A stretch of 64,000 bases of DNA from Chloroflexota bacterium (GTDB taxonomy: Bacteria; Chloroflexota; UBA11872; VXOZ01): positions 352,001-416,000 of the forward strand of contig OZ219801.1 in NCBI GenBank assembly GCA_964291655.2, written 5' to 3'. The translations under genes were made by a program, and so were the position numbers. Below, one piece after another: positions 5,671 to 58,268 of this stretch (position 1 is its first letter; the number at the start of each line of letters is the position of its first letter). A model generated the notes under the pieces. It saw only the letters and a program-made list of their open reading frames with translations, was not told where the DNA came from and made no database searches.

Positions 5671-5910
5671 GGTGTTTCTCCTTGTGGGTGTTGTTCCTGT
5701 AGCGAATGAGCGATGCGGGTTGCCCGTGGGAACCCGTGAGCGGGCAAAAGGCCCCCGTATCAGGTACGGGGCAGGCTCGTCGTGAATTGGGCATAGGTCC
5801 TCCTCGGTGGGTGAGAGTGGGAATGGGGATGAAGCGGAAGCGAGTTCCGCAAGCAAGCGGAGCGGAGAAGCTCCGTCAGGGGGAATGCGGGAGGAGAGAG
5901 TGGCGGGGAG

Positions 5911-7430: not shown

Positions 7431-7566
7431 GCACCTCCTAGTGCTTCAGCTTGTTTGTTGCCTTGAATCCGCGCCCGCTTGCGGGCAAAGAAGAAGGGGC
7501 CGCTCCCGGAATGAGAGCGACCCCTGAGTGTTGTGATGGGTTGCGAGAAGGCCTAAGGCCTCGTGG

Positions 7567-8058
7567 TCAGCGTCGGAACCTGCCGCGCACCGTGCGCCGT
7601 GGCATGAACCGCCTGAGCAGCAGCCAGCCGATGCCCAGGCCGACCAGGTTCAGGAAGAAGAGCTCCAGGTCGAGGGTCAGCAAGGGCGCCGCAACGACCA
7701 GGGCGACGACTCCGACCACCACGACCTTTCTACGCCTCCACCAGGGCGGCTTATCCAGAGCCGTGACCGGGGTGTCATACACCTGCGCGTAAGCCGTCCA
7801 GATCGGAAGCCCGATGAGCGCCTCCATCTCGGTGACAATCACGCCGCGACCGCAGCCCCGGGTGTGGCAGCGCACGTCGATGCCGTTGCCGTCCGGCCTC
7901 TGCCGAAACGCCAGCCCGTCGGACTTGCCGCCGTGACAGACAGCCGTCGTCGTCCAGAACCAGCCCCGTTCGAAGCTGACCCGGTGAGGGAGCAGGTCGG
8001 CGATCCGCCTCGCGCTGGGTCCCGTGTACCGTTCCGTCCTTATCCGTGTGTCGTCCAT
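7567..8058 (-). CDS. Primase-type zinc-binding domain fused to two C-terminal TM helices
   Basis: VCHGGKSDGLAF...RCHTRGC motif; hydrophobic segments KVVVVGVVALVVAAPLL and LFFLNLVGLGIGWLLL; RBS AAGGAGG. Confidence 0.6.
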   Translation of the reverse strand: MDDTRIRTERYTGPSARRIADLLPHRVSFERGWFWTTTAVCHGGKSDGLAFRQRPDGNGIDVRCHTRGCGRGVIVTEMEALIGLPIWTAYAQVYDTPVTALDKPPWWRRRKVVVVGVVALVVAAPLLTLDLELFFLNLVGLGIGWLLLRRFMPRRTVRGRFRR

Positions 8059-41812: not shown

Positions 41813-42724
41813 ATGTGCGGCATAATAGGCTTTCTGGATAAGGCTGGCGAGGGGGCCGCGCCGGTTGGCAACACGGTGCTCACTATGCTCAATGCCTTGG
41901 CGTGCCGCGGCCCGGACTCTGCGGGTGTCGCGCTCTATACCGGCGCAAGCAACGGACATACCGTGCTGCGCGTTAAGTTGGGCGAGAATGGCACCTTTGA
42001 GGGACGCCGCGAGAACATCACCGAGCGCGTACAAACTCTGGGCGAAATACATGGTGAGTCAACCACGGAAGAGTACCTTCGCCTTGAGTTAGACTTTCAG
42101 GGCGATCCCCGTGAGCTCAGCGCGCTTATCGAGTCAGAGGCAGAAAACGTCGAAGTCGTAAGCATGGGCAATGCCTTGGAAATCGTCAAGCAGGTAGGTA
42201 CTCCGGAAAATCTCGAGCAGACTCACGGTGTCTCGCGCATCACCGGCACTCACGGTATCGGTCATACGCGCCTCTCCACTGAATCACGCGTAGACCTGAG
42301 TCATTCGCAGCCATTCTGGGCACACGGCATGCCTGACCTCGCGGTGGTCCACAATGGGCACATCACCAATTACCACAACTTGCGCAGGCTCTATGAGCAG
42401 CACGGCGTACGGTTCTATACGGAAAACGACTCTGAAGTCATCGGTGTCTACCTGGCAGACCGCATATCGCAAGGCATGTCCCTCAAAGAGGCGCTCACTG
42501 CCTCCTTGTACGACCTGGACGGCTCCTTTAGCTATCTGGCAGCGACTCAGCATGAGCTGGGATTTGCCAAAGACCGCTTCGCCCTCAAACCGCTCCTCTT
42601 TACCGAAACGGACGACTCCGTTGTGGTCGCCACCGAGGAGATCGCAATTGAGAATGCGTTCCCGGGCATAGGCGGTGTGCGTGAGGCACAAGCGAAGGAA
42701 ATACAGGTATGGCAGTTGAACTAG
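41813..42724 (+). CDS. mgsA: N-methylglutamate synthase subunit A (class II glutamine amidotransferase-like)
   Basis: MCGIIG, RGPDSAG, GHTRLSTES, HNG.I.NY, ENDSEV; operon context. Confidence 0.85.
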   Translation: MCGIIGFLDKAGEGAAPVGNTVLTMLNALACRGPDSAGVALYTGASNGHTVLRVKLGENGTFEGRRENITERVQTLGEIHGESTTEEYLRLELDFQGDPRELSALIESEAENVEVVSMGNALEIVKQVGTPENLEQTHGVSRITGTHGIGHTRLSTESRVDLSHSQPFWAHGMPDLAVVHNGHITNYHNLRRLYEQHGVRFYTENDSEVIGVYLADRISQGMSLKEALTASLYDLDGSFSYLAATQHELGFAKDRFALKPLLFTETDDSVVVATEEIAIENAFPGIGGVREAQAKEIQVWQLN

Positions 42725-43422
42725 ATTGCTCCGGCAAGACTATCCGCCAGATCAACACTGCCATCAAAGCGCACATTGCCAGCGGAGAAGAAGAGGTCTT
42801 GGTACGCAATCCCGGCGCCCGGCACAACCTCGGTGTCGCGCTGCTCCAGCCCTCGACCGTAACTTTCGACGGTAGCGTAGGCTACTTCTGCGGCGGCTTA
42901 ATGGATGGCGCCACGGTGGAAGTCAATGGGAGCACCGGCTGGGGCCTGGCGGAGTCAATGCTCTCCGGCACAGTCACGGTCCGCGGCAGCGCCGGCAACG
43001 GAGCGGCAGCGACAATTCGCGGCGGCACCGTAGTTATACACAAACATGCGGCGGCGCGGGCCGGCGTGGCTATGAAGGGCGGCCTCCTGTTGATTGGCGG
43101 GAACTGCGGCTACATGGCCGGTTTCATGGGACAGCGGGGTACCATAGTCGTTTGCGGCGACGCGGGCGATGCCTTTGCAGACTCTATGTATGAGACCAAG
43201 TGCTATGTGGGCGGCAAGATTGGCGAATTGGGCAACGATGCCGTTATAGAGAACCTAAGTTCGGAAGACACTGCGTTTCTCGAAACCACCTTCGCCGCGC
43301 ATCTTCCCGACCGCTTGGCCGATCTGACTACGCGCTTGGCGGACTTCAAGAAGATCGTCTCCGGTCGCCGCCTGTGGAACTTCGACAAGACCGACTGGGA
43401 CGTTTGGCAGCAGGTGGTCTAA
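42709..43422 (+). CDS. mgsB: N-methylglutamate synthase subunit B (GXGXG domain)
   Basis: NPGARHNLGV and GXGXG repeats; overlaps mgsA. Confidence 0.85.
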   Translation: MAVELDCSGKTIRQINTAIKAHIASGEEEVLVRNPGARHNLGVALLQPSTVTFDGSVGYFCGGLMDGATVEVNGSTGWGLAESMLSGTVTVRGSAGNGAAATIRGGTVVIHKHAAARAGVAMKGGLLLIGGNCGYMAGFMGQRGTIVVCGDAGDAFADSMYETKCYVGGKIGELGNDAVIENLSSEDTAFLETTFAAHLPDRLADLTTRLADFKKIVSGRRLWNFDKTDWDVWQQVV

Positions 43423-43652
43423 CCGAAGACGCTCTAGGTGTTCGCGAGCAATTCTCGCAGCAAAAAGAAACTAGCCCGCTCTTGCGCTTTGTTAGACATG
43501 AGGTTTGGCATTAATCGAGAGCAACCGCAACAAGATCCCACGATCGGGAGCTCCAAGAGCTAATCCATAGACTGGTTTAGGGAACAAGAACAGAAAACAT
43601 TAGCCGCATTCCCATTTGAAACAAGAAATCCTGGTAGGAGGAGCAAGGGACT

Positions 43653-45002
43653 ATGACAGACGGCGAAAACGGCCGCCTGCGACCTAGCGGAACATATACC
43701 CCTGAAGTAATCGCCGAAATTCAAGAGAAGGCGCAACTTGGGCGCTACATCATGCGCGGTTTCGGCACACTGCGGGAGCGCAACTGGTCGACGTTTGACG
43801 ACCTTACTTTCCTCCCTTGCACCTTGACCCGCATACCATTGGAAGGCTATCGCGAGCACTGCTCGACGAAGACCGTCATCGGTAGTCGCTACGCTGAGAA
43901 TCCGATCGAACTCGACATTCCCGTTATGATTACGGGCATGAGTTGGGGCGCGCTATCCTACAACGCCAAAGTAGCGCTGGCGCAGGGCGCGGCTGCCGTC
44001 GGCTCGTCAAACACTACCGGCGACGGCGGCATGTTGGAGGCAGAACGGGAAAACAGTAAGACCCTGGTCTACGAAGTCCTGCCCTCCCGCTACGGGATAA
44101 GTATCCACCACGCACGCGCCGCCGACGCCATTGAGTTGACGATCGGTCAGGGTGCAAAACCGGGCACCGGCGGTCTGCTGCTCGGCTCTAAAGTCTCGGA
44201 CGTAATTGCCGAGCAACGGGATCTCCCTGTCGGTGTGGACCAACGCAGCCCCGCACGCCATCCGGACTTTCTGGGTCCCGATGACATGATTATCAAGGTC
44301 GAAGAACTCCGCGAGGCCACTGACTGGAAAGTGCCGATCTTCATCAAGATGGGCGCGACGCGCGTATTCGACGACGTACGGCTCGCCGCCAAAGCGGGCG
44401 CCGACGCGGTGGTGGTGGACGGCATGGAAGGCGGCACCGGCGCGTCGCCGGAAATGCTGCAGGAACACACGGGCATCCCCACGTTGGCCGCAGTATGCGA
44501 GGCGCGCGCTGCTCTGGAAGACTTGGGCCTCTATGGCGAAGTGCAACTCATCATAGCCGGAGGTATCCGGCACGGCGTGGATGCCGCGAAAGCCCTCGCC
44601 CTTGGCGCGGACGCCGTCTATATTGGTACGTCCGCCCTCATCGCGCTCAATTGTAATAAGTCTCTATACGTAGAAGACTATGAAGCGCTAGGCACGAAAC
44701 CTGGCTTTTGCCACCACTGCCATACGGGTAGATGCCCTGTCGGCATTACGACCCAAGACCCGGAACTCATGAAGCGACTGCCTATCGACGAGGCCGCCGA
44801 GCGGGTCTCCAGCTATCTGCGCGCGATGGTCTCGGAAATGCAGATGCTGGCGCGGGCCTGCGGCAAGGCCGACGTACACGACCTGGACCCGGACGACCTG
44901 CGTGCGCTGACCTCGGAAACCTCGATGATTTGCGGTATCCCCCTCGTCGGCACGAACCGCATCGTCGGCGGCGGACCTGGCTGGGAAGAGCGGGGACACT
45001 AG
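43653..45002 (+). CDS. mgsC: N-methylglutamate synthase subunit C (FMN glutamate-synthase-like)
   Basis: GMSWGALS, TTGDGG, GQGAKPG.GG, CHHCHTGRCPVGITTQDP. Confidence 0.88.
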   Translation: MTDGENGRLRPSGTYTPEVIAEIQEKAQLGRYIMRGFGTLRERNWSTFDDLTFLPCTLTRIPLEGYREHCSTKTVIGSRYAENPIELDIPVMITGMSWGALSYNAKVALAQGAAAVGSSNTTGDGGMLEAERENSKTLVYEVLPSRYGISIHHARAADAIELTIGQGAKPGTGGLLLGSKVSDVIAEQRDLPVGVDQRSPARHPDFLGPDDMIIKVEELREATDWKVPIFIKMGATRVFDDVRLAAKAGADAVVVDGMEGGTGASPEMLQEHTGIPTLAAVCEARAALEDLGLYGEVQLIIAGGIRHGVDAAKALALGADAVYIGTSALIALNCNKSLYVEDYEALGTKPGFCHHCHTGRCPVGITTQDPELMKRLPIDEAAERVSSYLRAMVSEMQMLARACGKADVHDLDPDDLRALTSETSMICGIPLVGTNRIVGGGPGWEERGH

Positions 45003-45159
45003 CCGGGATGCCCTGCAACTAAGCACCTGAGTCTTTCGCTCATCTTTGGAATACACGTGTGGGTGATTTGAGCGCATTTGTCTTGTGGCCTTCCTCCAAG
45101 TTGGTAGAGACCTTGAGTCCTGAACAGGCCCTTAACCGTCAACCCTGTAAGGTATTTGC

Positions 45160-45420
45160 ATGTCTTTCCTGATTCCGTGTCCCAACTGCGGCAAGCGCAG
45201 CGTCTACGAGTTTCGCTTTGGCGGTGAGGTGAAGTCCCGGCCGGAAGCGGGTTCGAGCGACGAGGCGTGGCTGGGCTATAGTTACGCCACAGGTAACTCC
45301 GAGCGCTCTCAGAAGGAATGGTGGTTCCACACCTACGGCTGCCGCCAGTGGCTCTTTGCCGTGCGCGACACGCTGACGAACGAGGTGACGGGGACGAGTC
45401 TGCCCGAGGAGGAACTGTGA
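45160..45420 (+). CDS. mgdB: N-methylglutamate dehydrogenase/sarcosine oxidase delta subunit
   Basis: IPCPNCG.R...EF..GGE; EWWFH..GC..W. Confidence 0.85.
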   Translation: MSFLIPCPNCGKRSVYEFRFGGEVKSRPEAGSSDEAWLGYSYATGNSERSQKEWWFHTYGCRQWLFAVRDTLTNEVTGTSLPEEEL

Positions 45421-48191
45421 GCCGCAATTCTGAATCTCGTCATTCCGGCGAAAGCGGGAATACATCTTCGGCCGCCTCGGATCGTAACGGACATTCCGCC
45501 GTGACTTTCCACTTCGATGGCAAGCCCATCGAAGCCCATCCACAAGATACGGTAGCTTCTGCACTTTACCGTTCCGGACAGCGCATCTTCAGCCGCAGTT
45601 TCAAGTACCATCGCCCGCGCGGCCTGCTGTGCGTTTCGGGTAGGTGTCCCAACTGCATGATAAACGTGGACGGCACGCCCAACGTGCGCGCGTGCACGCA
45701 GCCGGTCCAAGACGGCATGCAGATCACCCACCAGAATGCCTATCCTTCCTTAGAGTCCGACTTCATGGCCGTTGCCGAACGGTTTGCCTGGGCCATGCCC
45801 GTAGGGTTCTATTACAAGACCTTTACGCATCCCTGGATGTGGCACCTTGCAGAACCGCTTATTCGCCGCGCCGCAGGCTTGGGCAAGATTGACCGCGACC
45901 CAAAATCGGATGCCGAACACCCGTATGAGCACGTATTCCTGCATACCGCGACCGCCGTAGTTGGCGGGGGGCCCTTCGGATTGCGGGCTGCCCTTGACGT
46001 GGCAGAGCGGGGCGAAGAAGTGGTTCTGATCGACGATCAGCCGGAGTTGGGCGGTCACACACGCTATACGGGCTCCGGCAACGACAATTCGAGCGCAGTC
46101 TCATTCCCGGAAACCTCATCCGGTGGCCAATCCACTGATGAACTCTCAGCGCTGGTGAAGCGTGTGCATGAGCATCCCAAAGTCACCATCTTCACCGACG
46201 CCACCTGCTTCGGAATCTATGAAGACAATCTGCTGGGTATCGTGCATCAGGGTCCTGGATCCCCGGTAGCCCAGCGTCTCACGCAACTGCGTACTGAACG
46301 CATCGTCGTCGCCACGGGCGCCCATGAAATCCCGTTGTTGTTCGAGAATAACGATGTGCCCGGTGTCATGCTCAGTAGCGGCGTCCAACGCCTCATCGGC
46401 CTGCATGGAGTGAAGCCGGGCGAACGTGCCGTAGTGGTTGGCACGGCAGAAGCAGCGGGATCAGTAAGCGGCGCGCTAGAGGCTGCGGGTACTGCGATTG
46501 TAGGGACTGTCCCCTTGGACCAAGTTGTCAAAGCCGTCGGTCGTAAGCATGTCTCAGGTCTTCAGACTTCCGAGCAGCTACTCGCGTGCGATCTCGTCGT
46601 CATGTGCGGCGATTGGGTGCCGGACGCAGGCCTCGTCGCCCAGGCTGGCGGCAACGTGGCGTGGGATGATGAGCGGGCCGTTTTCGTTACAAGTGACTTG
46701 CCGGATGGTGTCACAGCAGTGGGAGCAGTGACCGGTGAAACGCTGCCTCCTGCTACAACCCTCTTCCAGAATTCCGATTCGAACCCTAAAAAGACATTCG
46801 TTTGCCCCTGTGAGGACGTTTCGCTTCATGACCTGCGTACAGCTATCGATGAAGGCTTCGATCACATCGAAACGCTCAAGCGGTACACCACTACCACGAT
46901 GGGGCCCTGCCAAGGCAAGATGTGTCACCAAGCCGCCATCGGGATCTGCGCGCAGCAGACCGGGCAGACAATACAAGAAACCGGCAGAACAACATCGCGG
47001 CCACCGACATCTCCCGTACCGCTCGGAGCGCTGGCCGGGCCCCACTTACATCCGGTCAAGCGCACACCCATGCATGTCAAGCACGACGAACTCGGCTGTG
47101 TCTGGATGGACATGGGCGAGTGGAAACGTCCGCTCTACTACGGTACGCCGGATAGCAAAAAGGAATCCGTGGAACAAGAGTACTGGGCGGTACGCCAGCG
47201 CGTCGGTCTAATCGACTTGAGCACCCTCGGCAAACTCGACGTCATCGGCCCAGACGCCGGCAAGCTCCTGGACAAGGTCTACACCAATCGCTTTTCCGAT
47301 CTGCGTGTAGGTCGCGCCCGCTACGGCGTTATCTGTGATGAGGCGGGCATTATCCTGGACGACGGCACCGTCTCCCGCCTTGGCGAAGACCATTATTTCA
47401 TTACCACCACCACCGGCAATATCGAGTTCGTGGAGGAGTGGCTGGAGTGGTGGCTCGCAGGCTCCGGCATGTGCGTGCACGTCACGAATGTCACCGGCGG
47501 CATGGGCGCCGTAAACGTGGCCGGTCCCAAGGCCCGTGAAACGCTCGCCAAGCTTACCGACCGGGACCTCAGCAACAAGCGCTTTGGCTACATGCGCTGC
47601 CGCAAAGCCGATGTAGCGGGTGTACCCAGTCTCATGTTGCGCATCGGTTTCGTCGGCGAGACTGGATGGGAGATTCACTTTCCCGCGGAATACGGCGAGC
47701 ACATCTGGGATGCCATCATGGAAACCGGCGCGGAGTTCGATATCCTGCCCTTTGGCGTGGAAACACAACGCGTGCTTCGCCTCGAAAAGAAACACGTGAT
47801 CGTCAGCGTCGATACCGACGCCACGAGCAACCCCATCGAGTCTGACCTGGCCTGGGTAGCAAAACTTGATAAAGAAGACTTCATAGGCAAAGCAGCCATC
47901 AGCCGCGCGAAGGACCGTGCCCCGCGGGAAAGGCTTGTGGGGTTTGTTATGGATGAGAATGTGCTGCCGCCGGACGGTTGCGTGATCATTGCCGACGGTC
48001 AGCCGGCGGGGCGCATCACGAGCGTGCGCTATTCACCGGTGAATGAGAGGATCATAGGCTTGGCCTGGGTTGCCGCAAGCCTTGCGGTCGCCGACCAGAC
48101 AATAGAAGTGCGTGTCGACGGCCGCCCGGTAACGGCCAAGATTAAAGACGAACCATTTTACGATCCCGCGCAGGCGCGACTCCGCCAGTAA
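45417..48191 (+). CDS. mgdC: N-methylglutamate dehydrogenase/sarcosine oxidase alpha subunit
   Basis: SRSFKYHRPRG, 2Fe-2S cysteines, IETLKRYTTTTMGPCQGK, GcvT-like folate-binding domain. Confidence 0.88.
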   Translation: MSRNSESRHSGESGNTSSAASDRNGHSAVTFHFDGKPIEAHPQDTVASALYRSGQRIFSRSFKYHRPRGLLCVSGRCPNCMINVDGTPNVRACTQPVQDGMQITHQNAYPSLESDFMAVAERFAWAMPVGFYYKTFTHPWMWHLAEPLIRRAAGLGKIDRDPKSDAEHPYEHVFLHTATAVVGGGPFGLRAALDVAERGEEVVLIDDQPELGGHTRYTGSGNDNSSAVSFPETSSGGQSTDELSALVKRVHEHPKVTIFTDATCFGIYEDNLLGIVHQGPGSPVAQRLTQLRTERIVVATGAHEIPLLFENNDVPGVMLSSGVQRLIGLHGVKPGERAVVVGTAEAAGSVSGALEAAGTAIVGTVPLDQVVKAVGRKHVSGLQTSEQLLACDLVVMCGDWVPDAGLVAQAGGNVAWDDERAVFVTSDLPDGVTAVGAVTGETLPPATTLFQNSDSNPKKTFVCPCEDVSLHDLRTAIDEGFDHIETLKRYTTTTMGPCQGKMCHQAAIGICAQQTGQTIQETGRTTSRPPTSPVPLGALAGPHLHPVKRTPMHVKHDELGCVWMDMGEWKRPLYYGTPDSKKESVEQEYWAVRQRVGLIDLSTLGKLDVIGPDAGKLLDKVYTNRFSDLRVGRARYGVICDEAGIILDDGTVSRLGEDHYFITTTTGNIEFVEEWLEWWLAGSGMCVHVTNVTGGMGAVNVAGPKARETLAKLTDRDLSNKRFGYMRCRKADVAGVPSLMLRIGFVGETGWEIHFPAEYGEHIWDAIMETGAEFDILPFGVETQRVLRLEKKHVIVSVDTDATSNPIESDLAWVAKLDKEDFIGKAAISRAKDRAPRERLVGFVMDENVLPPDGCVIIADGQPAGRITSVRYSPVNERIIGLAWVAASLAVADQTIEVRVDGRPVTAKIKDEPFYDPAQARLRQ

Positions 48192-48199
48192 GAGAATCA

Positions 48200-48874
48200 A
48201 TGGAATCACCACTTCGACAATCTCCGCTCCACCATGTTGCCTCCGAATTGGGCGCGACATTTAGCTCCCACCACGGTTGGAACATAGCGACGCAATTCGC
48301 AACGCCGGACGCGGAAGTTGCGGCCCTCAAGAGCGGTGTCGGCATGGCGGACGCGAGTTGGCTGGGCAAGCTGGAACTCAAGGGTCGCCAGCAAGAGTTG
48401 GAATCCATCACAATTGACGCAGGCAAGACATGGCGTCTGGCGCGAGGGCACTACTTTATTGCCTGTGATCCGATGAGCGGAGACGCAGTCATCGAGTCGA
48501 TAGAACGACAGGTTGCAGAGCGAGAAAGCACAGACCCGGCGTGGGCAGGCTGCGTTCACGTGGTAGACGTGACCTCCACCCTTGCGGGCATCCTACTCGC
48601 GGGCCCCCATAGCCGCGACGTGTTGCAGCGGCTGACTGCACCCGATGTTTCCGACTCCGCCTTTGCTAATGGAGCCTGCCTTAGCGCCAAAGTCGCCGGT
48701 CTGCACGCGCGGCTTGTGCGGGACGATCTTGACGCAACGCTGGCCTATGGGCTCTTTGTCGGCACCGAGTACGCCGCCTACGCCTGGGAAGCAATCATGC
48801 ACGCCGGGCATCAGTTCGGCATAGTGCCGGTAGGCCATGAGGCCGCGCAACGCATGCGGGGTGCCAAACCATGA
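48200..48874 (+). CDS. mgdD: N-methylglutamate dehydrogenase/sarcosine oxidase gamma subunit
   Basis: GcvT-like fold: VVDVTS....LAGP.SRDVL, YAAYAW. Confidence 0.75.
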   Translation: MESPLRQSPLHHVASELGATFSSHHGWNIATQFATPDAEVAALKSGVGMADASWLGKLELKGRQQELESITIDAGKTWRLARGHYFIACDPMSGDAVIESIERQVAERESTDPAWAGCVHVVDVTSTLAGILLAGPHSRDVLQRLTAPDVSDSAFANGACLSAKVAGLHARLVRDDLDATLAYGLFVGTEYAAYAWEAIMHAGHQFGIVPVGHEAAQRMRGAKP

Positions 48875-50136
48875 TCCAATTGTTTCGCAAGGAGCGCATG
48901 TGGCGCGCGCATGAACTCAAAAAAAGCTATGACGTCGTCATCATCGGCGCGGGCGTGCACGGTCTGGCTACAGCGTACTACCTGGGCAAGGACCACGGCA
49001 TCACCAACGTAGCTGTCCTGGAAAAGCGCTATCTCGGCGCCGGCAATTCCGGGCGCAACACTGCCATCATCCGTGCAAACTACCGCACGCCGGAAGGCGT
49101 CCCCTTCTTCGCCCGCTCGCTTCAACTGTATGAAGACCTGTCGCGCGAGCTTGAGTGGAACCTGCTTTTCAACCAATGCGGTCATCTGACCCTGGCCCAC
49201 ACGGATTCATCCGTGGACGGGCTGCGCGTGCGTGCCGAGACCAACCAGATCATGGGCGTGGACAGCCGCGTCATCTATCCGGAAGAAATTCAGAAGCTCG
49301 TCCCCGCGCTCGACATGAGCGACCGACCGCGCTTACCCGTGATGGCGGCGCTCTATCACCCGCCGGGCGGCATCATTCGTCATGACGCCGTGGTGTGGGG
49401 CTACGCGCGAGCGTGCGACCGCATGGGCATCGAGATTCACCCATTCACTGAGGCGACGAGCATTGGCATTGACGGCTCAACCGCGAGTGACCACGCCAAT
49501 GAACCCCAGCACCTCGGTACGCCGGAGGGCAAAATAACTAGCGTTGAGACTACCAATGGGAGCATTGCCACAGGCACCGTGATAAATTGCGCTGCCGGTT
49601 GGGCCACAGTGGTCTCTCGGATGGCCGGTGTTCCCCTGCCCATCGTGACTCAACCTTTGCAGGCCTGTGTCACAGAGCCGCTCAAGCCATTCCTCGACAA
49701 GGTGATAGTCTCGGCCAATCTGCACGTGTACGTCAGTCAAACCGACCGAGGCGATTGCGTCATGGGAGCAGAGGTTGATCCACTTCAGTCCTACAGCATG
49801 CAGGGCACGCTCCCTACGTTGGAACAAATGGCCACCTACACCTTGGAGCTCTTTCCACAATTGCACAGTGTGAGCGTCCTGCGGCAATGGGCCGGAATCT
49901 GCGATATGACTCCCGACTTTTCGCCCATCATCGGCGGAGTCGAAGGCTTGGAAGGCTATCATCTGGACGTGGGCTGGGGTACGTACGGGTTTAAGGCCGG
50001 CCCTGTTGCCGGGAAATACCTGGCGGAACTCATCGCAACAGGTCAGACGCCCGAGCTGATCGAGCCATTCCGGCTCTCGCGCTTCCGTGAAGAGGCGCTG
50101 GTCGGTGAAAAAGCCGCAGCGGCAGTTTCGCATTAG
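48871..50136 (+). CDS. mgdA: N-methylglutamate dehydrogenase/sarcosine oxidase beta (FAD) subunit
   Basis: IIGAGVHGLATAYYL, GNSGRNTAIIRANY, RHDAVVWGYAR, GWGTYGFKA. Confidence 0.88.
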   Translation: MIQLFRKERMWRAHELKKSYDVVIIGAGVHGLATAYYLGKDHGITNVAVLEKRYLGAGNSGRNTAIIRANYRTPEGVPFFARSLQLYEDLSRELEWNLLFNQCGHLTLAHTDSSVDGLRVRAETNQIMGVDSRVIYPEEIQKLVPALDMSDRPRLPVMAALYHPPGGIIRHDAVVWGYARACDRMGIEIHPFTEATSIGIDGSTASDHANEPQHLGTPEGKITSVETTNGSIATGTVINCAAGWATVVSRMAGVPLPIVTQPLQACVTEPLKPFLDKVIVSANLHVYVSQTDRGDCVMGAEVDPLQSYSMQGTLPTLEQMATYTLELFPQLHSVSVLRQWAGICDMTPDFSPIIGGVEGLEGYHLDVGWGTYGFKAGPVAGKYLAELIATGQTPELIEPFRLSRFREEALVGEKAAAAVSH

Positions 50137-50288
50137 CACGTGCGCTACTTGTGTATCATGTAGACACAGATCAACGAACACAGCCCGTCATTCCGGCTTT
50201 CGCCAGTATCCAGCGATGGGTGGGGATTAGACTGGTTACTGTATCAGCAACTCTTGGAAACGGTAATTGCACGTAAGGAGGCACACCC

Positions 50289-51623
50289 ATGACAATCGAC
50301 GAGGTCAAATCTCTGATTGCAGAGCGCGGCATCAAGTTCTTTCTCTGCTCGTACGTGGAGATGAGCGGCGCGCCTAAAGCAAAATTGATCCCGGCTACGC
50401 ACATCGATGACATGGCGGACGGCAGCGCCGGCTTCGCCGGCTTCGCTGCCGGCGACATGGGGCAGAGTCCCCACGATCCCGACATGCTCTGTCATCCTGA
50501 TTTCAATTCGACACTTGTCCTGCCGTGGCGGCCGGACATCGCCTGGGTATCGGGCAACATCCACGTCAACGACGTGCCTTGGCATTACGGGCCCCGCTCG
50601 ATCCTAGAGCAGCAGTTAGCGAAAGCGGAGCAGGCGGGCTATCTCATGAACGTGGGCACTGAAGCCGAGTTCATGCTGCTCAAGCAAGACGAGCACGGCG
50701 GCTATGCTCCCTGGGACGCGCTCGATACGCTCGACAAGCCCTGCTATGACGTGCGCGCTTTGTACCGGAACCTTGACGTCATCACGACCCTGGTTGGTCA
50801 TATGCAAGACCTGGGCTGGGAGCCCTATGCTTCCGACCATGAAGACGCTACTTGCCAGTTTGAACTCAACTGGCTCTACTCCGACGCAATGACCACCGCA
50901 GACCGCCACACCTTCTTCCGCTGGATGGTTAAGACGGTCGCCGAGGAAAACAGCCTGACCGCCACGTTCATGCCGAAGCCGTTCCAAGACCTCACCGGCA
51001 ACGGCGCGCACTGCCACGTGAGTCTCTGGGATAACGACAACACGACGAACCTCTTCCTGGATGAAGACGACGAAAACGGCCTTTCGCAGCTTGCGTATTG
51101 GTTCACCGGCGGCGTCCTACACCATGCCCGCGCGCTTACGGCGGTGACCTGTCCCATCGTAAACAGCTACAAGCGCCTAATCCGCGGCCAGCCGCGCTCC
51201 GGCGCTACCTGGGCGCCGGTGTACGGCACCTACGGCGGCTCCAACCGTACCCAGATGATCCGCATCCCCGATCCGGGACGTATCGAAAACCGCATCGTGG
51301 ACGGCGCGACCAATCCCTATCTTGCGTACACGGTATTGCTCGCCGCCGGCCTCGACGGCATTGCCAACAAGATTGATCCCGGCGTGCGCAACGACGACAA
51401 TCTCTACGAGCTTTCGGAAGAGGAACTTCACCGCCGCGGCATTACGTTCCTGCCCACCAGCCTCCCCGAGGCGCTTGACGAACTCGACAAGGACGACGTG
51501 ATCAAAGAGGCGCTGGGCCGCGAGTACGCCGATTACTTCATCGCGGTCAAGCGCGATGAATGGAACCGCTACCACCTCAGCGTGAGCCAGTGGGAATTGG
51601 ATAACTACATCGGCGTGTTCTAG
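50289..51623 (+). CDS. gmaS: Gamma-glutamylmethylamide synthetase (GlnT/type III GS-like)
   Basis: KAKLIPA, GFAGFA, KPCYD, DHEDA..QFELNW, SGATWAP, NRTQMIR; adjacent to mgs/mgd. Confidence 0.85.
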   Translation: MTIDEVKSLIAERGIKFFLCSYVEMSGAPKAKLIPATHIDDMADGSAGFAGFAAGDMGQSPHDPDMLCHPDFNSTLVLPWRPDIAWVSGNIHVNDVPWHYGPRSILEQQLAKAEQAGYLMNVGTEAEFMLLKQDEHGGYAPWDALDTLDKPCYDVRALYRNLDVITTLVGHMQDLGWEPYASDHEDATCQFELNWLYSDAMTTADRHTFFRWMVKTVAEENSLTATFMPKPFQDLTGNGAHCHVSLWDNDNTTNLFLDEDDENGLSQLAYWFTGGVLHHARALTAVTCPIVNSYKRLIRGQPRSGATWAPVYGTYGGSNRTQMIRIPDPGRIENRIVDGATNPYLAYTVLLAAGLDGIANKIDPGVRNDDNLYELSEEELHRRGITFLPTSLPEALDELDKDDVIKEALGREYADYFIAVKRDEWNRYHLSVSQWELDNYIGVF

Positions 51624-52080: not shown

Positions 52081-53241
52081 ATGGCGCGATTCCACGATTC
52101 AGATTCCGGCATTACATTGGACAACGAGTTTGAGTGTGCTAGTGCGCGGGAGTTTAGCAGGATCGGTCCCGGGCACTACCAAGTTGAGTTGCTCATCGAG
52201 AACTATAGCCCAGACTACCCGGTGGTGTGGGAGTACATGTTCTGCTTCCGGGTGCGGTCGCAGTCAGACCAAGCGCAAACGGTTACCTTTCGCGTCATGA
52301 AGGGGCGGGGCGGCATCAGCTACCTGGATGGGCCGCACTTTGCCAAACGCAACGGCAAGTGGGGCCTCGTGCCCCGTTCCCAAACGCACATGACACAGGA
52401 TTACGTCGAGGTCACCCTCGAAGTTGCTGCAGGCGACGAATTCTTACTCGGCAATCATCCGTTTCCCACACCGGCGGAGGTGGAATCCGCGATGCATGCC
52501 ACTGCCGCTGCGCTGGACGATTTCTCCGTGCGCGAATTCGGACGGACGCCGGAAGACCGCCCGCTCTTGGCGCTGGAATCCCAGCCCCGCGACAAGACCG
52601 TCATAGTCTTCGACACGATGCAACCGGCCGAACCCGGCGACGTGCCGATGCTCTTCCTCGCCCACTGGCTGAGCAGTCGCTCCGCCGAGGCGGAAAGGCT
52701 CTTGGAGGAATACCAGTTTTGCCTCATGCCCTTGACGAACCCGGACGGCACGGCCCACGGACACTCGGTGACGAATGCGGCCGGGGAAGTGCCGCGCTGC
52801 CACTTTGAGGACGCCAAATTGGGCAAACCGGTCCCCGCTGAGGCCGCCACGACTTGGGAATACTTAGCGGAAAAGAAACCCACGGCGTTTATCGAATTCC
52901 ACATCCATTACCTCGTACACGCCCCGCACAAGCTGGTAGGCGTCACCGTCAATGAACCCTCGGATGAACGCGGCGTCGTAGCCTTGCCTGCGGCCACTGT
53001 GCTCTGGGGCGAGCTCCTAAAGCTCAACAGCAACTGGCGGGCGCGCCTCATCGAGGCCGAGAGCGAAACCTTTCGCAATGCCCTTGACGGCACGTTGGCG
53101 CGAGACTTCGGCACTTTGGCTTATGTCTATCAGATCTACGCCCCAACTGTTGAAGCCGCCTGCGCCCATGCCGTGGACGTGGTACGGGCGACGGTCAACG
53201 GAGTGCAGGCCGCCGCCGCACTCGATCTACAAAACGCTTGA
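52081..53241 (+). CDS. M14 zinc-carboxypeptidase-like protein with degenerate metal motif
   Basis: FG.TPEDRPL, QPAE in place of HxxE, PLTNPDG, FIEFH. Confidence 0.7.
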   Translation: MARFHDSDSGITLDNEFECASAREFSRIGPGHYQVELLIENYSPDYPVVWEYMFCFRVRSQSDQAQTVTFRVMKGRGGISYLDGPHFAKRNGKWGLVPRSQTHMTQDYVEVTLEVAAGDEFLLGNHPFPTPAEVESAMHATAAALDDFSVREFGRTPEDRPLLALESQPRDKTVIVFDTMQPAEPGDVPMLFLAHWLSSRSAEAERLLEEYQFCLMPLTNPDGTAHGHSVTNAAGEVPRCHFEDAKLGKPVPAEAATTWEYLAEKKPTAFIEFHIHYLVHAPHKLVGVTVNEPSDERGVVALPAATVLWGELLKLNSNWRARLIEAESETFRNALDGTLARDFGTLAYVYQIYAPTVEAACAHAVDVVRATVNGVQAAAALDLQNA

Positions 53242-53495
53242 ACCGGCCTCCCAAGAAAACTCACAGTATTGGGTTGCTTTTCAGCTAATATGTCTAGACA
53301 GGTACGGCTACCTGGTGTAACCTACAGACACGCGGTGATTGACACTAAAGTGAGTAGGGAACACGGCGGCGGCACCGCATCTCTTGATCAAAGTACTTCC
53401 GCACAATCTGAATGGAGGCGCTAAAGACGGCAGCATCGCACCGTATTCCCTGTGCCCGGTTGCAACAGTGGAACGATAGAGAAAGGACGAGAGGA

Positions 53496-54926
53496 ATGGC
53501 AATTCACAATCGTCATCTCACACGGAGAAGCGTCCTCGCCGGCATCGGCAGCTCAATAGGCGTCTTGGCAGTCGCCGCGTGCGCGCAAGGAACAGCAACG
53601 CAGATGCCTGCCGAAGAGTCTGAGGAGGAGGCCAAGCAGGCTGAAGAAGCACCAGTGATGGAAACAGTATCGGTGCGCGCCGGTTGGATTTCCAACGATG
53701 CCTCAGTAATCGAGCCCTTCTACGGCGATCTGCTTGTCGCCAGCTTCGAAGCGGCGCATCCCAACATCAAGGTGGCGTGGGAAGGCGCGCCCGCCAGAGA
53801 GCACCATGCCAAGCTCGCGACCCAGTTGGCGGCCAACGAAGCGCCGGATGTCTTCCACAGTGACGGCGTTCGCTACGCGCTCTTCCGCGACTCCGGGTAC
53901 ATCAACGACCTCGCACCCTATTTGCAGCGCGACGCCGGGGCACTGCAAGGCGTGATCGGCCCGGAATTTTTCCGCGATCCCGACGGCAGCACATGGGGTA
54001 TCTCCAGCAGTATCGGCGGCGTCGCCACGGCCTACAACACCGCCCACTTCGATAAGTTCGGCGTCAACCGCCTGCCTGAAGGAGGAATCAATTGGAATCC
54101 GACCGATGGCGGTGAGTTCTTAGAAATAGCGCAAGAGCTCACCCAGCGCGGCAGCACCGAGGCGGACCCGGTCTGGGGCTTCTTCAACAACAAGCAAATC
54201 ACCGGCGACGTGCTGAGCCTGCTCGTGCAGAACGGCACGAATTTCCTCAGCGATGACTACCGCCGCTCGCGCATCCATGAACCGGAATTCATGGAAGTTG
54301 TGGAATTCCTGCACAACCTGGAATTCAAGTGGCAGGTATCCCCAAATCCCGAGCACGTCGCGCTGCTGCTGGAGGCCATACCAGAAGGGCAGACCTATCA
54401 CGCGCCGTTCGCGTTCCAACGGACGGCAATGATGAACCTGCTCATGGGTCAGTCCGGCCGTTGGGGCGGTCCCGATCCGGAGAGCTTGCCGGTGGTGGCC
54501 GTGAAGTTCCTGAGCGGTCCCCAGAACGACAAGGTGCCAAGCGGAGGCCGGGTCATGGAGCATTGGGGCAGTTCACAACAGCCCGATGAAGCATGGGACC
54601 TCATGCGCTTCTTCCTGACAGACCACGAGGTGAACATTGCGACCTTCACCATTCTCAAGTCCGGTCTGCCGCCCAACACGAACTTCTGGGACGACGAACG
54701 GCTCTATGTGAAATCGGGCAGACCGCCGCGTGAAATCGAGGCCTACATGGCCACACTGCGCGAAGGCAAGGGCTACTACTGGCAGGTGAACGGCGTCTGG
54801 AGCGCCTGGATCGGCGCTTACCGCACCGGTCAGGGTGCGATCTGGGCCGGCGAAGCCACAGTGGAGGAAGCGATGCAACAAGCCAGCAAGGAGGCGCAAG
54901 CGGCGCTGGACGAGTATTACGGCTAG
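53496..54926 (+). CDS. Family-1 solute-binding Tat-lipoprotein (paralog A)
   Basis: LTRRSVL twin-Arg plus VAAC lipobox; APDVF, AYNT.HF. Confidence 0.88.
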   Translation: MAIHNRHLTRRSVLAGIGSSIGVLAVAACAQGTATQMPAEESEEEAKQAEEAPVMETVSVRAGWISNDASVIEPFYGDLLVASFEAAHPNIKVAWEGAPAREHHAKLATQLAANEAPDVFHSDGVRYALFRDSGYINDLAPYLQRDAGALQGVIGPEFFRDPDGSTWGISSSIGGVATAYNTAHFDKFGVNRLPEGGINWNPTDGGEFLEIAQELTQRGSTEADPVWGFFNNKQITGDVLSLLVQNGTNFLSDDYRRSRIHEPEFMEVVEFLHNLEFKWQVSPNPEHVALLLEAIPEGQTYHAPFAFQRTAMMNLLMGQSGRWGGPDPESLPVVAVKFLSGPQNDKVPSGGRVMEHWGSSQQPDEAWDLMRFFLTDHEVNIATFTILKSGLPPNTNFWDDERLYVKSGRPPREIEAYMATLREGKGYYWQVNGVWSAWIGAYRTGQGAIWAGEATVEEAMQQASKEAQAALDEYYG

Positions 54927-55084: not shown

Positions 55085-56488
55085 CTAAATCGGCACTTTC
55101 TGTGCCATTGCCGCCAATCGTACATCCGCCTGCAAGCAGAGCCTACGCTCTTGCCGCTGCCGCTCGGAGAGTTGGCCCCGAGGATCGCAGACGACCACTA
55201 GGCTGTCCTTACCTTCCGGTATTCGGAAGGGCACCTCACACACCGCTTCCTCGCGTCCGATTACTGTCGGCACTAGTGCATGTCCCAGTTGCATGCCGCC
55301 GCCCTCGTCAATCGGCCCATCAAAGACCATCAGTGCCACGTCGTGTGCGTCAATCACCCCTCTGTTCACCACAGTTACCTGTACACGACCGATCTCTCGA
55401 TTTAACTCAGCTACCTCCACCGCTGCAAGTTCCAGGTCGCATTCCACGCGGTCGACTGACACAGCCGCATAGGCATCGATAAGGCCGTGGCCCATAAACG
55501 GATTCCAGCCGCTGCCACCGGCCGGCTGCTTCGCGGTGTTGCGTATTACCATCCTGACCTGCTCGGCCGTAAGGCCGGGATGTCGCGACCATACGAGCCC
55601 CGCGAGGCCGGAGACATGTCCTATTGCCATGCAGCCGCCCGACCACTCCACGTAGCCGCCGTGCTCACCGGTAATCGTACTAAGAACGCCGTATTCCGCT
55701 TGGGGATGAGCACCCAGCGCGGCTGCCATAACGCATTCTTCCGCCAGCGGCAAAATGCGCCGCGAGGGATCATTCGCAAGGTCGTAGTCACGCCAGCCGG
55801 ACGGCGCCGCGACCTCCGTGAGGTCGCCGTAGTCGCTAAAGTCTGCCATGCGGCCGCTCTTGTCCGCGGAAGCCACATTGACTACACCCGGGCAGAGCGC
55901 GGGATACTTGGCGACATTGTGGGCCTGATTGCCGCCGGTAGCATTGATTATGAGCACATTGTGCTGCTGGGCATACCGGCAGGCCTCCAGCAGTTCCTCC
56001 GAATGCGGCGGAGTCCAGGCGCTGTAGATCGTGGGCAGGCCGTGCTTGGTAGTGTACATGTAGCCCACGTCGCTCAAATTGATGACCCGCGCGCCGTTGT
56101 CCACGGCAAATCGGATCCCGCGCGCGAGCTCGCCATCGTGGTAGGTATTGACCCGCACGGGGAGAATACGGCACTCCGGCGCGACCCCGGCAATGCCGAT
56201 GCCGTTGTCTGCGCGCGCGGCAATTATGCCGCAAATGTGGGTGCCGTGATCAGTAGAGTCCTTGTGTTTGCGCGGTCGCGAGGTGTCGTCCAGGCTATCG
56301 TCATCCTCCCACAAGTCCCATCCCGGCAGAATCTGGCCCTCCAGGTCGGGATGCCCGACATCGATTCCTTTCTCGATGACAGCCACCACCACGTCCGGGC
56401 TGCCGCGCGTTGTTTCCCAGGCGTCAGGGGCCCTCATGAGCTGCAATCCCCATTGCTGTGCAAACAGTGGGTCATTAACTGGAACCAT
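55085..56488 (-). CDS. S8 subtilase-fold protein with atypical triad (Glu-His-Cys) and a C-terminal CARDB-like domain
   Basis: NDPLF..QWGL, VAVIEKGID, DHGTHICGIIAA..DNGIGIAGVAP, VINLS, SGGCMA..HVSG.AGL, G.GLIDA. Confidence 0.85.
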   Translation of the reverse strand: MVPVNDPLFAQQWGLQLMRAPDAWETTRGSPDVVVAVIEKGIDVGHPDLEGQILPGWDLWEDDDSLDDTSRPRKHKDSTDHGTHICGIIAARADNGIGIAGVAPECRILPVRVNTYHDGELARGIRFAVDNGARVINLSDVGYMYTTKHGLPTIYSAWTPPHSEELLEACRYAQQHNVLIINATGGNQAHNVAKYPALCPGVVNVASADKSGRMADFSDYGDLTEVAAPSGWRDYDLANDPSRRILPLAEECVMAAALGAHPQAEYGVLSTITGEHGGYVEWSGGCMAIGHVSGLAGLVWSRHPGLTAEQVRMVIRNTAKQPAGGSGWNPFMGHGLIDAYAAVSVDRVECDLELAAVEVAELNREIGRVQVTVVNRGVIDAHDVALMVFDGPIDEGGGMQLGHALVPTVIGREEAVCEVPFRIPEGKDSLVVVCDPRGQLSERQRQERRLCLQADVRLAAMAQKVPI

Positions 56489-56825
56489 AGTCTTTATCCT
56501 TAATTGGCGCTTGGCACATGGCTTACCCTCAGTGTATACAGATTGATGTTGGAGAGGCTCAACCTGTTTTCACTATAACTTGCTTCAATAGCCTTGTCAA
56601 TCCCGTTATGGTGTGAATCCTTCTCTCTACTTGACGACAAGGTATTGAATAGTACATTATCGCTATGAGAATCAGCGTTCTGCAGAGCGCCAACTCTGTT
56701 TGTTTCGAAAGGGGGGTTACCACAGAACACTTTGGCAGAACTGTGTCCGTACTGGTTCGTCATGTGCCCAACATTCACTCTGGCGATCCGAATTGTAAAA
56801 CCCATTTGTAGAGAGAGGGAAAGAA

Positions 56826-58268
56826 ATGTCATTTGCACAAAGTCGCATTACGCGTCGGCGCATGCTTGCCGGTACTGGCGGCGTTCTTGGCGCGATCGCG
56901 CTGGCAGCGTGCGGCACCGCCATGCCGGCCGATTCCGGCGAAATGCCGGAGAAGGCTGCGGAGGAGACCAAGGCCGAAGAACCGGCACCAGCAGAGAAGG
57001 TCACGGTTTCGGTTAGGTGGATCTCCAACGACCTTACTCGCGTTGAGCCATTCTACGAGAATCTCGTTGTGGCGCGATTCTACGAGAACTACGACAACAT
57101 CGAGCTTGATTGGGTAGGCGACACCTACCGCGACACCATGAGCCAGCTCAATACGCAGTTGGCCGCCGGTGACGCTCCGGACGTATTCCACAACGACGGC
57201 GTCTTCTTCGCTCGCAACCGTGATGCAGGGTTTGCTCGGGCGATCACCGAGTATGTCCAGCGCGATTCTGCTCAGCTCCAGGGGGTCCGCGGTCCCGAAT
57301 TCTTTACTGACGAGAAGCAGGATGTCTACGGCGTCTCCATGGGTGTCGGTGGCGCAGCGCTTGCCTACAATACCGACCATTTCGATCGCTACGGCATCAA
57401 TCGCTTGCCCGCCGAAGGCATAGACTGGAACCCGGATGACGGCGGCACGCTGCTGGAGATCGCTTCAGAAATTACGGGCCGTGGCGAAAACGAAGATCCC
57501 AGGGTGTGGGGTTGGTTCAACAATAAGCAGGCCACTTTCGACATTCTGGGGATGCTGCTGCAGAACGGCACGAATTTCCTCTCCGATGACTACCGCCGTT
57601 CCCGCGCGCACGAACCGGAATTCATTTCGGTTATTCAATTCCTGTGGGACTTGGAATTCAAGAATCGTGTTGCACCGGATCCCGACGACGTCGCGGAATT
57701 CAATGCTTCCGTACCTGAAGGAACAACGTACCACGGACCCTTTGCCTGGCAGCGGTCGGCCATGATGAATCTCGGCCTTGGCCAGTCCGGTTCCTGGGGT
57801 TCGCCGGATCCAGATAGTCTTCCCATTGTCGCCGTGGAGTACATCCATGGCCCGGCAAACAACAAGGTACCTGGCGGTGGACGTGTGGTGGAAATGTGGG
57901 GCAGCACTGAAGTGCCCGACGAGGCCTGGGAAGTGATGAAGTTCCCCTTGATCGACCACGAAGTTCAGGTGGGAGTCTTCACGATTCTCCGTGACGGCCT
58001 GCCGGCCAATACCAACACCTGGGATGACGCTCGCCTGCTCGAGAAGAGCGGTCGACCGCCGCGTGAGGTGGAAGCGTACATGGCGCCCCTCAGAGAGGGC
58101 CGCGGCCAATACTGGCAAGTCAATGGCGTGTGGCTGGAGTGGTGGCGCGCATTCCGTGGCAATATGAACCGCGCGTGGGCCCAAGAGGTCACCGTCGAGG
58201 AAGCCATGCAGACGGCAAGCAAGGAATCACAGGTTGTGCTGGACGAGTACTACGCAAACCAAGAGTAG
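56826..58268 (+). CDS. Family-1 solute-binding Tat-lipoprotein (paralog B)
   Basis: ITRRRML plus LAAC; long blocks shared with 53496-54926, e.g. QNGTNFLSDDYRRSR and KSGRPPRE. Confidence 0.88.
   Translation: MSFAQSRITRRRMLAGTGGVLGAIALAACGTAMPADSGEMPEKAAEETKAEEPAPAEKVTVSVRWISNDLTRVEPFYENLVVARFYENYDNIELDWVGDTYRDTMSQLNTQLAAGDAPDVFHNDGVFFARNRDAGFARAITEYVQRDSAQLQGVRGPEFFTDEKQDVYGVSMGVGGAALAYNTDHFDRYGINRLPAEGIDWNPDDGGTLLEIASEITGRGENEDPRVWGWFNNKQATFDILGMLLQNGTNFLSDDYRRSRAHEPEFISVIQFLWDLEFKNRVAPDPDDVAEFNASVPEGTTYHGPFAWQRSAMMNLGLGQSGSWGSPDPDSLPIVAVEYIHGPANNKVPGGGRVVEMWGSTEVPDEAWEVMKFPLIDHEVQVGVFTILRDGLPANTNTWDDARLLEKSGRPPREVEAYMAPLREGRGQYWQVNGVWLEWWRAFRGNMNRAWAQEVTVEEAMQTASKESQVVLDEYYANQE

Follow-up and report, generated by a model that had tools for sequence, protein, structure and literature searches.

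The 64,000-nucleotide stretch of contig OZ219801.1 analysed here (positions 352,001 to 416,000 of the forward strand; Chloroflexota bacterium, assembly GCA_964291655.2), hereinafter the window, encodes on its minus strand, at 55085-56488, a protein of the S8 (subtilisin) family in which the catalytic serine is replaced by cysteine and the catalytic aspartate by glutamate. By both sequence and fold, this protein is an S8 subtilase from which two defining catalytic features of the family (Ser and Asp) are missing while the histidine and the oxyanion-hole asparagine are kept. It appears to represent a small, monophyletic family of bacterial S8 proteins devoid of leader sequences, in which a natural Ser-to-Cys swap looks functional rather than a defect; judging by the sequence evidence laid out below, these proteins probably are catalytically active thiol-subtilases.

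The open reading frame (ORF) is intact and encodes 467 amino acids followed by a stop codon; upstream of the initiating ATG, there is no ATG, GTG or TTG back to the preceding stop, so that the ORF is not extendable. The protein matches the Pfam profile Peptidase_S8 (PF00082) with a score of 150.3 bits against a cut-off of 21.8, residues 32-335 covering profile positions 3-288 of 288, and is aligned by phmmer to thermitase (1tec/1thm) with an E-value of approximately 3e-35 and a score of 125 bits. In the phmmer alignment, the acid motif VAVIEKG pairs with IAIVDTG of thermitase, with Glu39 in place of the S8 aspartate; DHGTH pairs with GHGTH, the catalytic histidine being kept; TGGN pairs with AAGN, the oxyanion-hole asparagine being kept as well; and SGGCMA pairs with SGTSMA, with Cys286 replacing the serine of the GTSxA motif. 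The motifs VAVIEKG, HGTH and SGGCMA as well as the undisrupted frame had been reported in the original prediction, which was made from the DNA sequence alone, and all of them are confirmed here.

The N-terminus of the protein corresponds to the start of a mature enzyme (MVPVNDPLF, compared with NDPYF in thermitase), whereas the ordinary S8 relatives in our alignment carry 100-180 additional N-terminal residues, which include a signal peptide and a propeptide, along with PF22148, and for which there is no counterpart in the Cys-containing family. Neither a signal peptide nor a propeptide was found in any family member examined, including the paralogs of groups B and C described below. Thus, the earlier proposal that the protein starts directly at the mature domain holds, and the same applies to every family member examined. 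The cytoplasmic location that was proposed along with it is probable for these leaderless proteins, and the reducing environment of the cytoplasm would suit a thiol nucleophile.

The AlphaFold2 (AF2) model, built from a 40-row alignment (mean predicted local distance difference test score, pLDDT, 91.0; predicted template modelling score, pTM, 0.92), superposes on thermitase 1thm in VIA-align with a Z-score of 40.6 and a root-mean-square deviation of 1.6 A over 274 of 279 residues (model range 2-345; approximately 38% identity). Thermitase is also ranked first by Foldseek (E-value 3e-23; template modelling score 0.90 on the target). By the sequence alignment, the cysteine of this well-superposed model is placed at the position of Ser221 of subtilisin BPN', as had been anticipated. 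The catalytic domain is followed by a seven-strand beta-sandwich, modelled alone with a pLDDT of 85.5, for which there was no match in Pfam. Because a wide VIA search with this domain yielded only generic sandwiches (the best solved structure, 2l0d, at Z 10.1; the CARDB domain 3idu at Z 7.6), we describe it only as Ig-like or CARDB-like. The nearest ESM-Atlas clusters consist of generic S8 proteins, with CARDB present in 15% and 86% of the cluster members.

That the unusual active site is maintained is indicated by its conservation. A word-indexed homolog search recovers a tight group of proteins (P0002-P0028; 42-98% identity, at least 276 bits), beyond which there is a gap followed by ordinary S8 proteins at approximately 35% identity and no more than 150 bits. 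Glu39, His81, Asn187 and Cys286, together with Gly284 and Gly285, are invariant in all 25 proteins of this clade, down to 44% identity. The same four catalytic positions are kept in all 17 genomic copies, namely, the window and 16 loci (L001-L016) from Chloroflexota metagenome-assembled genomes (MAGs) and one 'Candidatus Zipacnadia' MAG; the cysteine codon is TGC in 16 of these and TGT in one, and the glutamate codon is GAG or GAA. The ratio of nonsynonymous to synonymous substitution rates (dN/dS), estimated by the Nei-Gojobori method, is 0.066-0.100 for eight pairs from the group that includes the window gene (group A; dS 0.93-1.5) and 0.05-0.08 for the catalytic domain; the value of 0.20 was obtained for the window gene and L001, which are nearly identical (dS 0.07), and for the near-saturated L012-L013 pair. 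Among the 308 S8 domain rows (268 proteins), cysteine is found in the nucleophile column of 33, all from this family (29 with the E-H-N-C signature, one with D-H-N-C and three fragments); the rest contain serine, save for a few degenerate modules of giant proteins. Decay or a quirk of assembly is not what we see here because the residues recur in independent assemblies with synonymous codons and low dN/dS. The earlier suggestion that the coordinated presence of Glu and Cys reflects an evolved cysteine enzyme, to be tested by its conservation across a clade under purifying selection, is thus borne out by the proteins, the genomic copies and the substitution rates alike.

The family extends beyond this clade. 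An exhaustive representative search, which gave 99,755 S8 hits, identified more distant full-length relatives, some with Glu-His-Cys (P0122, P0123 and P0124), others with Asp-His-Cys (P0127 and P0269), and one, P0133, with Asp-His-Ser (SGQSAA), the truncated sequence of which contains the insertions characteristic of the family and a remnant of the C-terminal domain. In P0164, a metagenomic protein of 454 amino acids, the acid is Glu, the cysteine is shifted by one position (QGCGLA) and the oxyanion position is occupied by Glu; this site may be degenerate or re-purposed. When a second homolog search was run with a profile of the distant members, only P0269 joined the family, and P0270 and P0271 proved to be ordinary GTS enzymes. 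Furthermore, the genome from which the window derives (3.47 Mb in 2 contigs) encodes, on contig 2, a second leaderless paralog with Asp-His-Cys (motifs VAVIDLGY, RGHH, DNRG and GGCMASAF). The original prediction made no mention of such paralogs, nor of the conserved M24-like neighbour that is discussed below.

In a survey of the phylum, 17 of the 401 sampled genomes gave a match with an E-value of 1e-60 or better. Full-length Cys-subtilases, 2-3 copies each, are present in the window genome, in all 10 other genomes of its genus and in G390, a genome from another family, and the other five genomes with a match encode ordinary GTS enzymes; a third copy is found in some genomes of the genus (L065 and L066). 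Among the 22 sequencing records listed for the gene, all of them holding contigs, there was no RNA data set; one record, with a small share, bears the label 'sponge metagenome'. All 13 paralog copies of groups B and C that we examined have Asp, His, Asn and GGC and are leaderless. These copies, too, evolve under purifying selection: of the six pairs compared within groups, five (four from group B and one from group C) have a dN/dS ratio (omega) of 0.057-0.094, and paralog pairs to L076 and between groups gave 0.16 and 0.21. In a quick maximum-likelihood tree of 34 rows, with the trait columns kept in, the Cys-subtilase family forms one clade of 19 rows (SH-aLRT support 99), which splits into the Glu-His-Cys subclade (10 rows, support 89) and a second subclade that consists of the Asp-His-Cys groups together with P0133 and P0164 (9 rows, support 84).

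So does anything beyond the catalytic positions themselves change with the nucleophile? Subtilisin is the textbook case of a serine protease that is crippled by a Ser-to-Cys swap, the S221C variant having become useful only after further engineering (subtiligase, peptiligase). We compared 61 rows with Cys and 263 rows with Ser, which include relatives and partial duplicates, so that the counts that follow are of sequences, not of events. The position equivalent to Thr220 of BPN' is Gly in 60 of the 61 Cys rows (His in the remaining one), and 256 of the 263 Ser rows have Thr there. At the Pro225-equivalent, where 222 of the 263 Ser rows have Pro, the Cys rows divide into 24 with Pro, 19 with Gly, including the window protein (Gly290), and 18 with Ala. 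Glu occupies the acid position in 44 of the Cys rows and, apart from these, in P0164 only; it does not occur in any of the 263 Ser rows, and accordingly the assertion in the original prediction that Glu-His-Ser variants are known finds no support in this sample. The activity of engineered thiol-subtilisin is drastically below that of the wild type, and the P225A substitution of subtiligase restores activity by relieving the crowding around the larger sulfur, with Cys221 shifted by approximately 0.5 A (PMC7921005). The pattern of co-variation in the natural family is as would be expected if the larger sulfur needs room.

The substrate cleft differs from that of thermitase as well. The first of two family-specific insertions (Table 1) corresponds to a 17-residue gap in the thermitase alignment, is modelled with a lower pLDDT of 69-71 and is present in all family members; the second, of approximately 37 residues (233-277 of the query vs 209-216 of thermitase), is present in family members and not in the outgroups. 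In addition, the loop equivalent to residues 99-104 of BPN' contains a 4-residue deletion relative to thermitase that, like both insertions, is common to all members of the family. Both walls of the canonical S4-S1 peptide-binding cleft thus appear to be remodelled, which would argue against a broad endopeptidase activity. Hardly any variation is seen at Lys194 within the core clade, and other residues take its place in the other subfamilies. This lysine is aligned to the thermitase residue that we take to be the equivalent of Gly166 of BPN', on the floor of the S1 pocket; if this equivalence is right, an acidic P1 group is suggested, as a lead only. In subtilisin, the substitutions G166K/R affect the preference for acidic P1 residues.

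From the residues, their conservation, the selection acting on them, the fold, the family and the gene neighbourhoods, we infer catalytic competence, thioacyl chemistry, the cytoplasmic location and the class of substrate. Under this hypothesis, Cys286 would be the nucleophile, activated by His81, which itself would be oriented by Glu39, with Asn187 forming the oxyanion hole, and catalysis would proceed via a thioacyl-enzyme intermediate. The Ser-to-Cys switch would have been accompanied by the replacement of the Thr220-equivalent with Gly, the frequent replacement of the Pro225-equivalent with Gly or Ala and, in one subclade, that of Asp with Glu. In functional terms, the enzymes would most likely act as hydrolases of amide or peptide bonds, on a substrate that is small and either imported or intracellular, and would do so as part of catabolic gene islands, the ancestral form acting jointly with an M24-like metallohydrolase; the substrate class is the weakest step in this chain. 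We propose an amide or peptide hydrolase because the islands look catabolic and are rich in C-N hydrolases.

Several considerations weigh against this interpretation. Engineered Ser-to-Cys subtilisins are poor amidases (PMC7921005), and amide hydrolysis should not be assumed for this reason. P0164 shows that the site of a Cys-subtilase can degenerate. The co-variation involves few independent events, the Ser/Cys switch may have occurred perhaps once or twice on the tree, and the internal splits of the tree, on which the order of the changes depends, are supported at only 84-89. Finally, the window copy has no M24-like neighbour, and the context of solute-binding proteins and an M14-like protein in which it is found is confined to the genus and so says little about its substrate.

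An alternative is that the thioacyl intermediate is resolved by an amine, making these proteins natural acyl-transferases, transpeptidases or ligases that form or rearrange amide or isopeptide bonds or carry out the cyclisation of a peptide. The thioester acyl-enzymes formed by S221C subtilisins react with amines in preference to water (PMC7921005), and the changes near the nucleophile resemble those in the engineered ligases, given that 37 of the 61 Cys rows have Gly or Ala at the 225-equivalent and nearly all of them have Gly at the 220-equivalent; furthermore, the distant ortholog in L015 (42% identity) is located directly downstream of a radical S-adenosylmethionine (SAM)/SPASM gene. However, the 24 Cys rows that retain Pro at the 225-equivalent do not fit this pattern, no precursor-peptide, ATP-grasp, non-ribosomal peptide synthetase or other biosynthetic genes recur beside the family, and the neighbours that do recur are hydrolases (M24-like, CE4-like, CN_hydrolase and Amidohydro_2) and oxidoreductases, in catabolic-looking islands with an ATP-binding cassette (ABC) importer. 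We consider a ligase to be unlikely and favour the role of a hydrolase. As for a modification of the cysteine itself, the sulfatase-type formylglycine motif is C-x-(P/A)-x-R, to which GGC(M/P)A does not conform, and the radical SAM/SPASM neighbour occurs in one context only, so that this candidate was rejected.

Could the family consist of dead enzymes, with the fold employed as a binding, scaffold or regulatory subunit, for instance, that of the M24-like protein, and with Cys and Glu kept for structural reasons or for redox sensing? S8 pseudo-proteases do exist, such as CspA and CspC of Clostridioides difficile (PMC7200643), and the engineered Ser-to-Cys subtilisins lose most of their peptidase activity (PMC7921005); the degenerate site of P0164 and the remodelling of the canonical cleft by the 4-residue deletion and the 17- and approximately 37-residue insertions point in the same direction. 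Pseudo-enzymes, however, usually lose several catalytic residues, whereas here the acid, the base, the oxyanion Asn and the nucleophile position are invariant in the clade (25 of 25) and in the paralogs (13 of 13), the nucleophile co-varies with its second-shell neighbours, and the catalytic domain evolves under a dN/dS as low as given above (0.05-0.08). This makes an inactive family quite improbable in our assessment. Hardly credible at all is the mundane explanation that we are dealing with an ordinary secreted serine protease in which Cys and Glu are sequencing or assembly errors or else neutral mutations of recent origin in a gene that is about to be lost: a single-base change does turn Ser (TCY/AGY) into Cys (TGY), but the same residues, encoded with synonymous codon differences, are shared by all 17 genomic copies and all 25 database proteins from independent assemblies, the reading frame is undisrupted and strong purifying selection acts on it, and no member has a signal peptide.

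The relationship of the thiol-subtilases, as we interpret them, to the known systems can be outlined as follows. With thermitase and other subtilisins of family S8 (1thm/1tec, and AK.1 protease, 1dbi), the window protein shares the fold, the order of catalytic residues, the His, the oxyanion Asn and the NDP(L/Y)F start of the mature enzyme; it differs in having Cys for Ser, Glu for Asp and Gly for Thr at the 220-equivalent, in being leaderless and in possessing an extra C-terminal beta-sandwich. With a Cys at the 221-equivalent combined with an intact His and oxyanion Asn, it is of the thiol-subtilisin type, and its nearest functional analogue, by likeness of the active site, is the engineered line of thiol-subtilisin and subtiligase, along with peptiligase and omniligase (S221C with or without P225A or other substitutions), in which Cys likewise occupies the position of Ser221 within the subtilisin fold. 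Like the P225A ligases, many natural members have no Pro at the 225-equivalent, which follows the same logic of relieving crowding (PMC7921005). Unlike the engineered enzymes, the natural family evolved under selection, is leaderless and additionally shows the Thr220-to-Gly change and, in one subclade, Asp32-to-Glu, neither of which is mentioned for the engineered enzymes in the accessible part of PMC7921005.

The intracellular subtilisins (ISPs) of Bacillus (2x8j, 2wv7 and 7xr8) are likewise S8 proteins without a signal peptide or a classical propeptide. Their chains match the window protein (P0001) with E-values of 7.6e-20 to 3.1e-19 and scores of 73-75 bits, compared with the 125 bits for thermitase; given that the ISPs score below thermitase and keep Asp-His-Ser, identity with this group was rejected. 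ISPs carry a short inhibitory N-terminal extension, which has no counterpart in P0001, starting as it does at the mature-domain motif. The mycosins of type VII secretion (TIGR03921) were dismissed on account of the score (213.3 bits, below the equivalog cut-off of 278.75), and the classical secreted pre-pro subtilisins on account of the missing signal peptide and the missing I9 or fervidolysin-type propeptide. No NCBIfam family scored above its cut-off for the subtilase, the M24-like, CE4-like and M14-like proteins or the solute-binding proteins. The chymotrypsin fold of clan PA accommodates either a Ser or a Cys nucleophile with a His base, as in picornain 3C; this interchange parallels the one in the Cys-subtilases, but involves a different fold and clan. 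To our knowledge, clan SB contains serine families only (S8 and S53), and full-text literature searches, which do not reach into subscription journals, MEROPS commentary or supplements, turned up engineered Cys-nucleophile subtilases but no natural ones.

Table 1. Coordinates of the features discussed in the text, numbered from the first nucleotide of the window
Feature	Position	Strand	Basis
Cys-nucleophile subtilase gene, complete, group A (Glu-His-Cys)	55085..56488	-	ORF and translation; PF00082; AF2 model
Shine-Dalgarno-like AAGGA, 9-13 nt 5' of the ATG	56497..56501	-	read from the sequence
Subtilisin-fold catalytic domain, residues 1-347, without signal peptide or propeptide	55448..56488	-	VIA, Foldseek
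Codon of Glu39 (GAG), catalytic-acid position, equivalent to Asp32 of BPN'	56372..56374	-	thermitase alignment; GAG/GAA across genomic copies
Codon of His81 (CAC), catalytic base, equivalent to His64 of BPN', after invariant Asp80	56246..56248	-	alignment, conservation
Family-specific insertion, residues ~141-164, right after the equivalent of the SLGG substrate-binding strand (here S-D-V-G)	55997..56068	-	gap in thermitase
Codon of Asn187 (AAT), oxyanion-hole Asn, equivalent to Asn155 of BPN'	55928..55930	-	alignment, conservation
Family-specific insertion, residues ~232-266, between the AAPSG strand and the strand leading to the nucleophile	55691..55795	-	thermitase alignment
Codon of Cys286 (TGC), nucleophile position, equivalent to Ser221 of BPN', within SGGCMAIGH	55631..55633	-	alignment, conservation
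C-terminal Ig-like or CARDB-like beta-sandwich, residues ~348-460, with conserved VCDPRGQxS tail motif	55109..55447	-	domain model
Leaderless M14D-like (cytosolic-carboxypeptidase-like) protein, context only	52081..53241	+	PF00246, partial match
SBP1, family-1 solute-binding lipoprotein, convergent with the subtilase, context only	53412..54926	+	PF01547, PF13416
SBP2, paralog of SBP1, divergent from the subtilase, context only	56826..58268	+	Pfam

The gene neighbourhoods that bear on the proposed function are not those of the window itself. A gene for a protein of the M24/Creatinase_N type adjoins the Cys-subtilase gene in 10 of 11 group-B loci, in both group-C loci and, within group A, beside the G390 ortholog (L013/L059), and is absent from the group-A loci of genus g1 and from L012 and L015. 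The M24-like proteins are 53-62% identical between lineages, and all eight sequences compared have the same residues at the five metal-ligand positions (D, D, H, E, E); no NCBIfam equivalog fits them, the weak matches including peptidases, ectoine hydrolase and DddP. A predicted complex of the L013 Cys-subtilase with the adjacent M24-like protein scored 0.00 against a mark of 0.32, an outcome that amounts to 'no answer'. A CE4-like gene follows the group-B subtilase in all 10 loci of the genus, and a 34%-identical homolog is encoded in L013. In G390, two paralogs lie approximately 14 kb apart in one island that also includes genes for DUF3604, DAO, PhyH, CN_hydrolase, a TIM-barrel protein, dehydrogenases, an SBP_bac_1 ABC importer, an isochorismatase-like protein and Amidohydro_2.

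Some of these loci show further features. In L078 (G390:C1:1446000-1465900), at 5454-7789, a CN_hydrolase gene (nitrilase superfamily, Cys-nucleophile amidase) is located 35 nt after the group-B subtilase, replacing the M24-like neighbour. On contig 2 of the window genome, at ~859-862 kb (L047:7650-11910), three DUF3604 genes, the M24-like gene, the Asp-His-Cys subtilase and a CE4-like gene form a same-strand run, beyond which are a gene of the MR/MLE enolase superfamily and an APH-type kinase. Genes similar to those for DUF3604/CehA-McbA-type metallohydrolases recur near the Cys-subtilase loci (window 34491-36854, L047:12194-18322 and L078:1147-2994). In the 'Candidatus Zipacnadia' MAG, the protein encoded directly upstream of the 42%-identical ortholog, the most divergent one (L015:6698-7900), is a radical SAM/SPASM protein ending in a SEC-C motif; this locus also includes a GH123-like gene upstream and an HpcH aldolase downstream.

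In the window, the subtilase is flanked by two solute-binding proteins (SBPs) with clear lipoprotein signals, unlike the leaderless subtilase. The original prediction drew attention to these as paralogs, which they are (55-59% identity); as a conserved flank they fare less well, SBP2 adjoining the subtilase in 13 and SBP1 in 12 of 16 related loci, all in relatives with at least 83% identity, and both being missing at the orthologs L012 (62%), L013 (59%) and L015 (42%). Linkage to SBPs, being conserved in close relatives only, was therefore set aside as functional evidence. The associated idea that the enzyme acts on an imported solute is possible, considering the sugar-type ABC importer (SBP_bac_1) encoded approximately 3-8 kb downstream of the ortholog in the G390/L013 island; its link to the SBPs is weak, and no gene for an ABC permease or ATPase was found among the window ORFs scanned. 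Together with the gene at 38995-40416, there are three orphan family-1 solute-binding lipoproteins within 20 kb.

The M14D-like gene is syntenic only in close relatives. Its product has Gln at the first zinc-ligand position (QPAE vs HPGE of 4b6z in the alignment), and the metal site may be altered or inactive. The subtilase gene lies downstream of this gene and of a cluster at 41813-51623 that comprises GATase_6/7, GXGXG and Glu_synthase-domain genes, sarcosine-oxidase-like alpha (GCV_T/Fer2_4/SO_alpha_A3) and beta (DAO) subunits and a glutamine-synthetase-like gene; by its domain set, we take this cluster to be the N-methylglutamate pathway of methylamine use. The window also contains two mobile-element genes approximately 27-32 kb upstream of the subtilase, one for a large serine recombinase with Resolvase, Recombinase and Zn-ribbon domains (23330-25024) and one for an integrase of the IS481 type (27569-28762), as well as a gene for a PrsW-family intramembrane protease domain fused to an NHL-repeat beta-propeller (32574-34157, minus strand).

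If the thiol-subtilase interpretation is true, the subtilisin fold supports thiol catalysis in vivo, and the family displays the answer of evolution to the question of which compensating changes are needed, namely, glycine at position 220, glycine or alanine at position 225 and the replacement of Asp32 with Glu. A cysteine branch would be added to clan SB in the classification of proteases, and the leaderless scaffolds, which presumably fold without a prodomain, would be useful for biocatalysis. A bolder claim can be made, namely, that this is the first natural, catalytically competent Cys-nucleophile branch of clan SB, turning it into a mixed Ser/Cys clan like PA and, in the boldest version, consisting of transacylases or peptide ligases in which an amine resolves the thioester; we consider this claim unlikely. 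Under it, evolution would have arrived at the remedies of the protein engineers, the removal of Pro225 and room beside the nucleophile, adding to these Thr220-to-Gly and Asp32-to-Glu; should the ligase version prove true, these proteins would be ready-made, prodomain-free scaffolds for peptide ligation. The Cys-subtilase family also marks a recurring, apparently catabolic module, comprising an M24-like hydrolase, the Cys-subtilase and a CE4-like deacetylase, in uncultured Chloroflexota.

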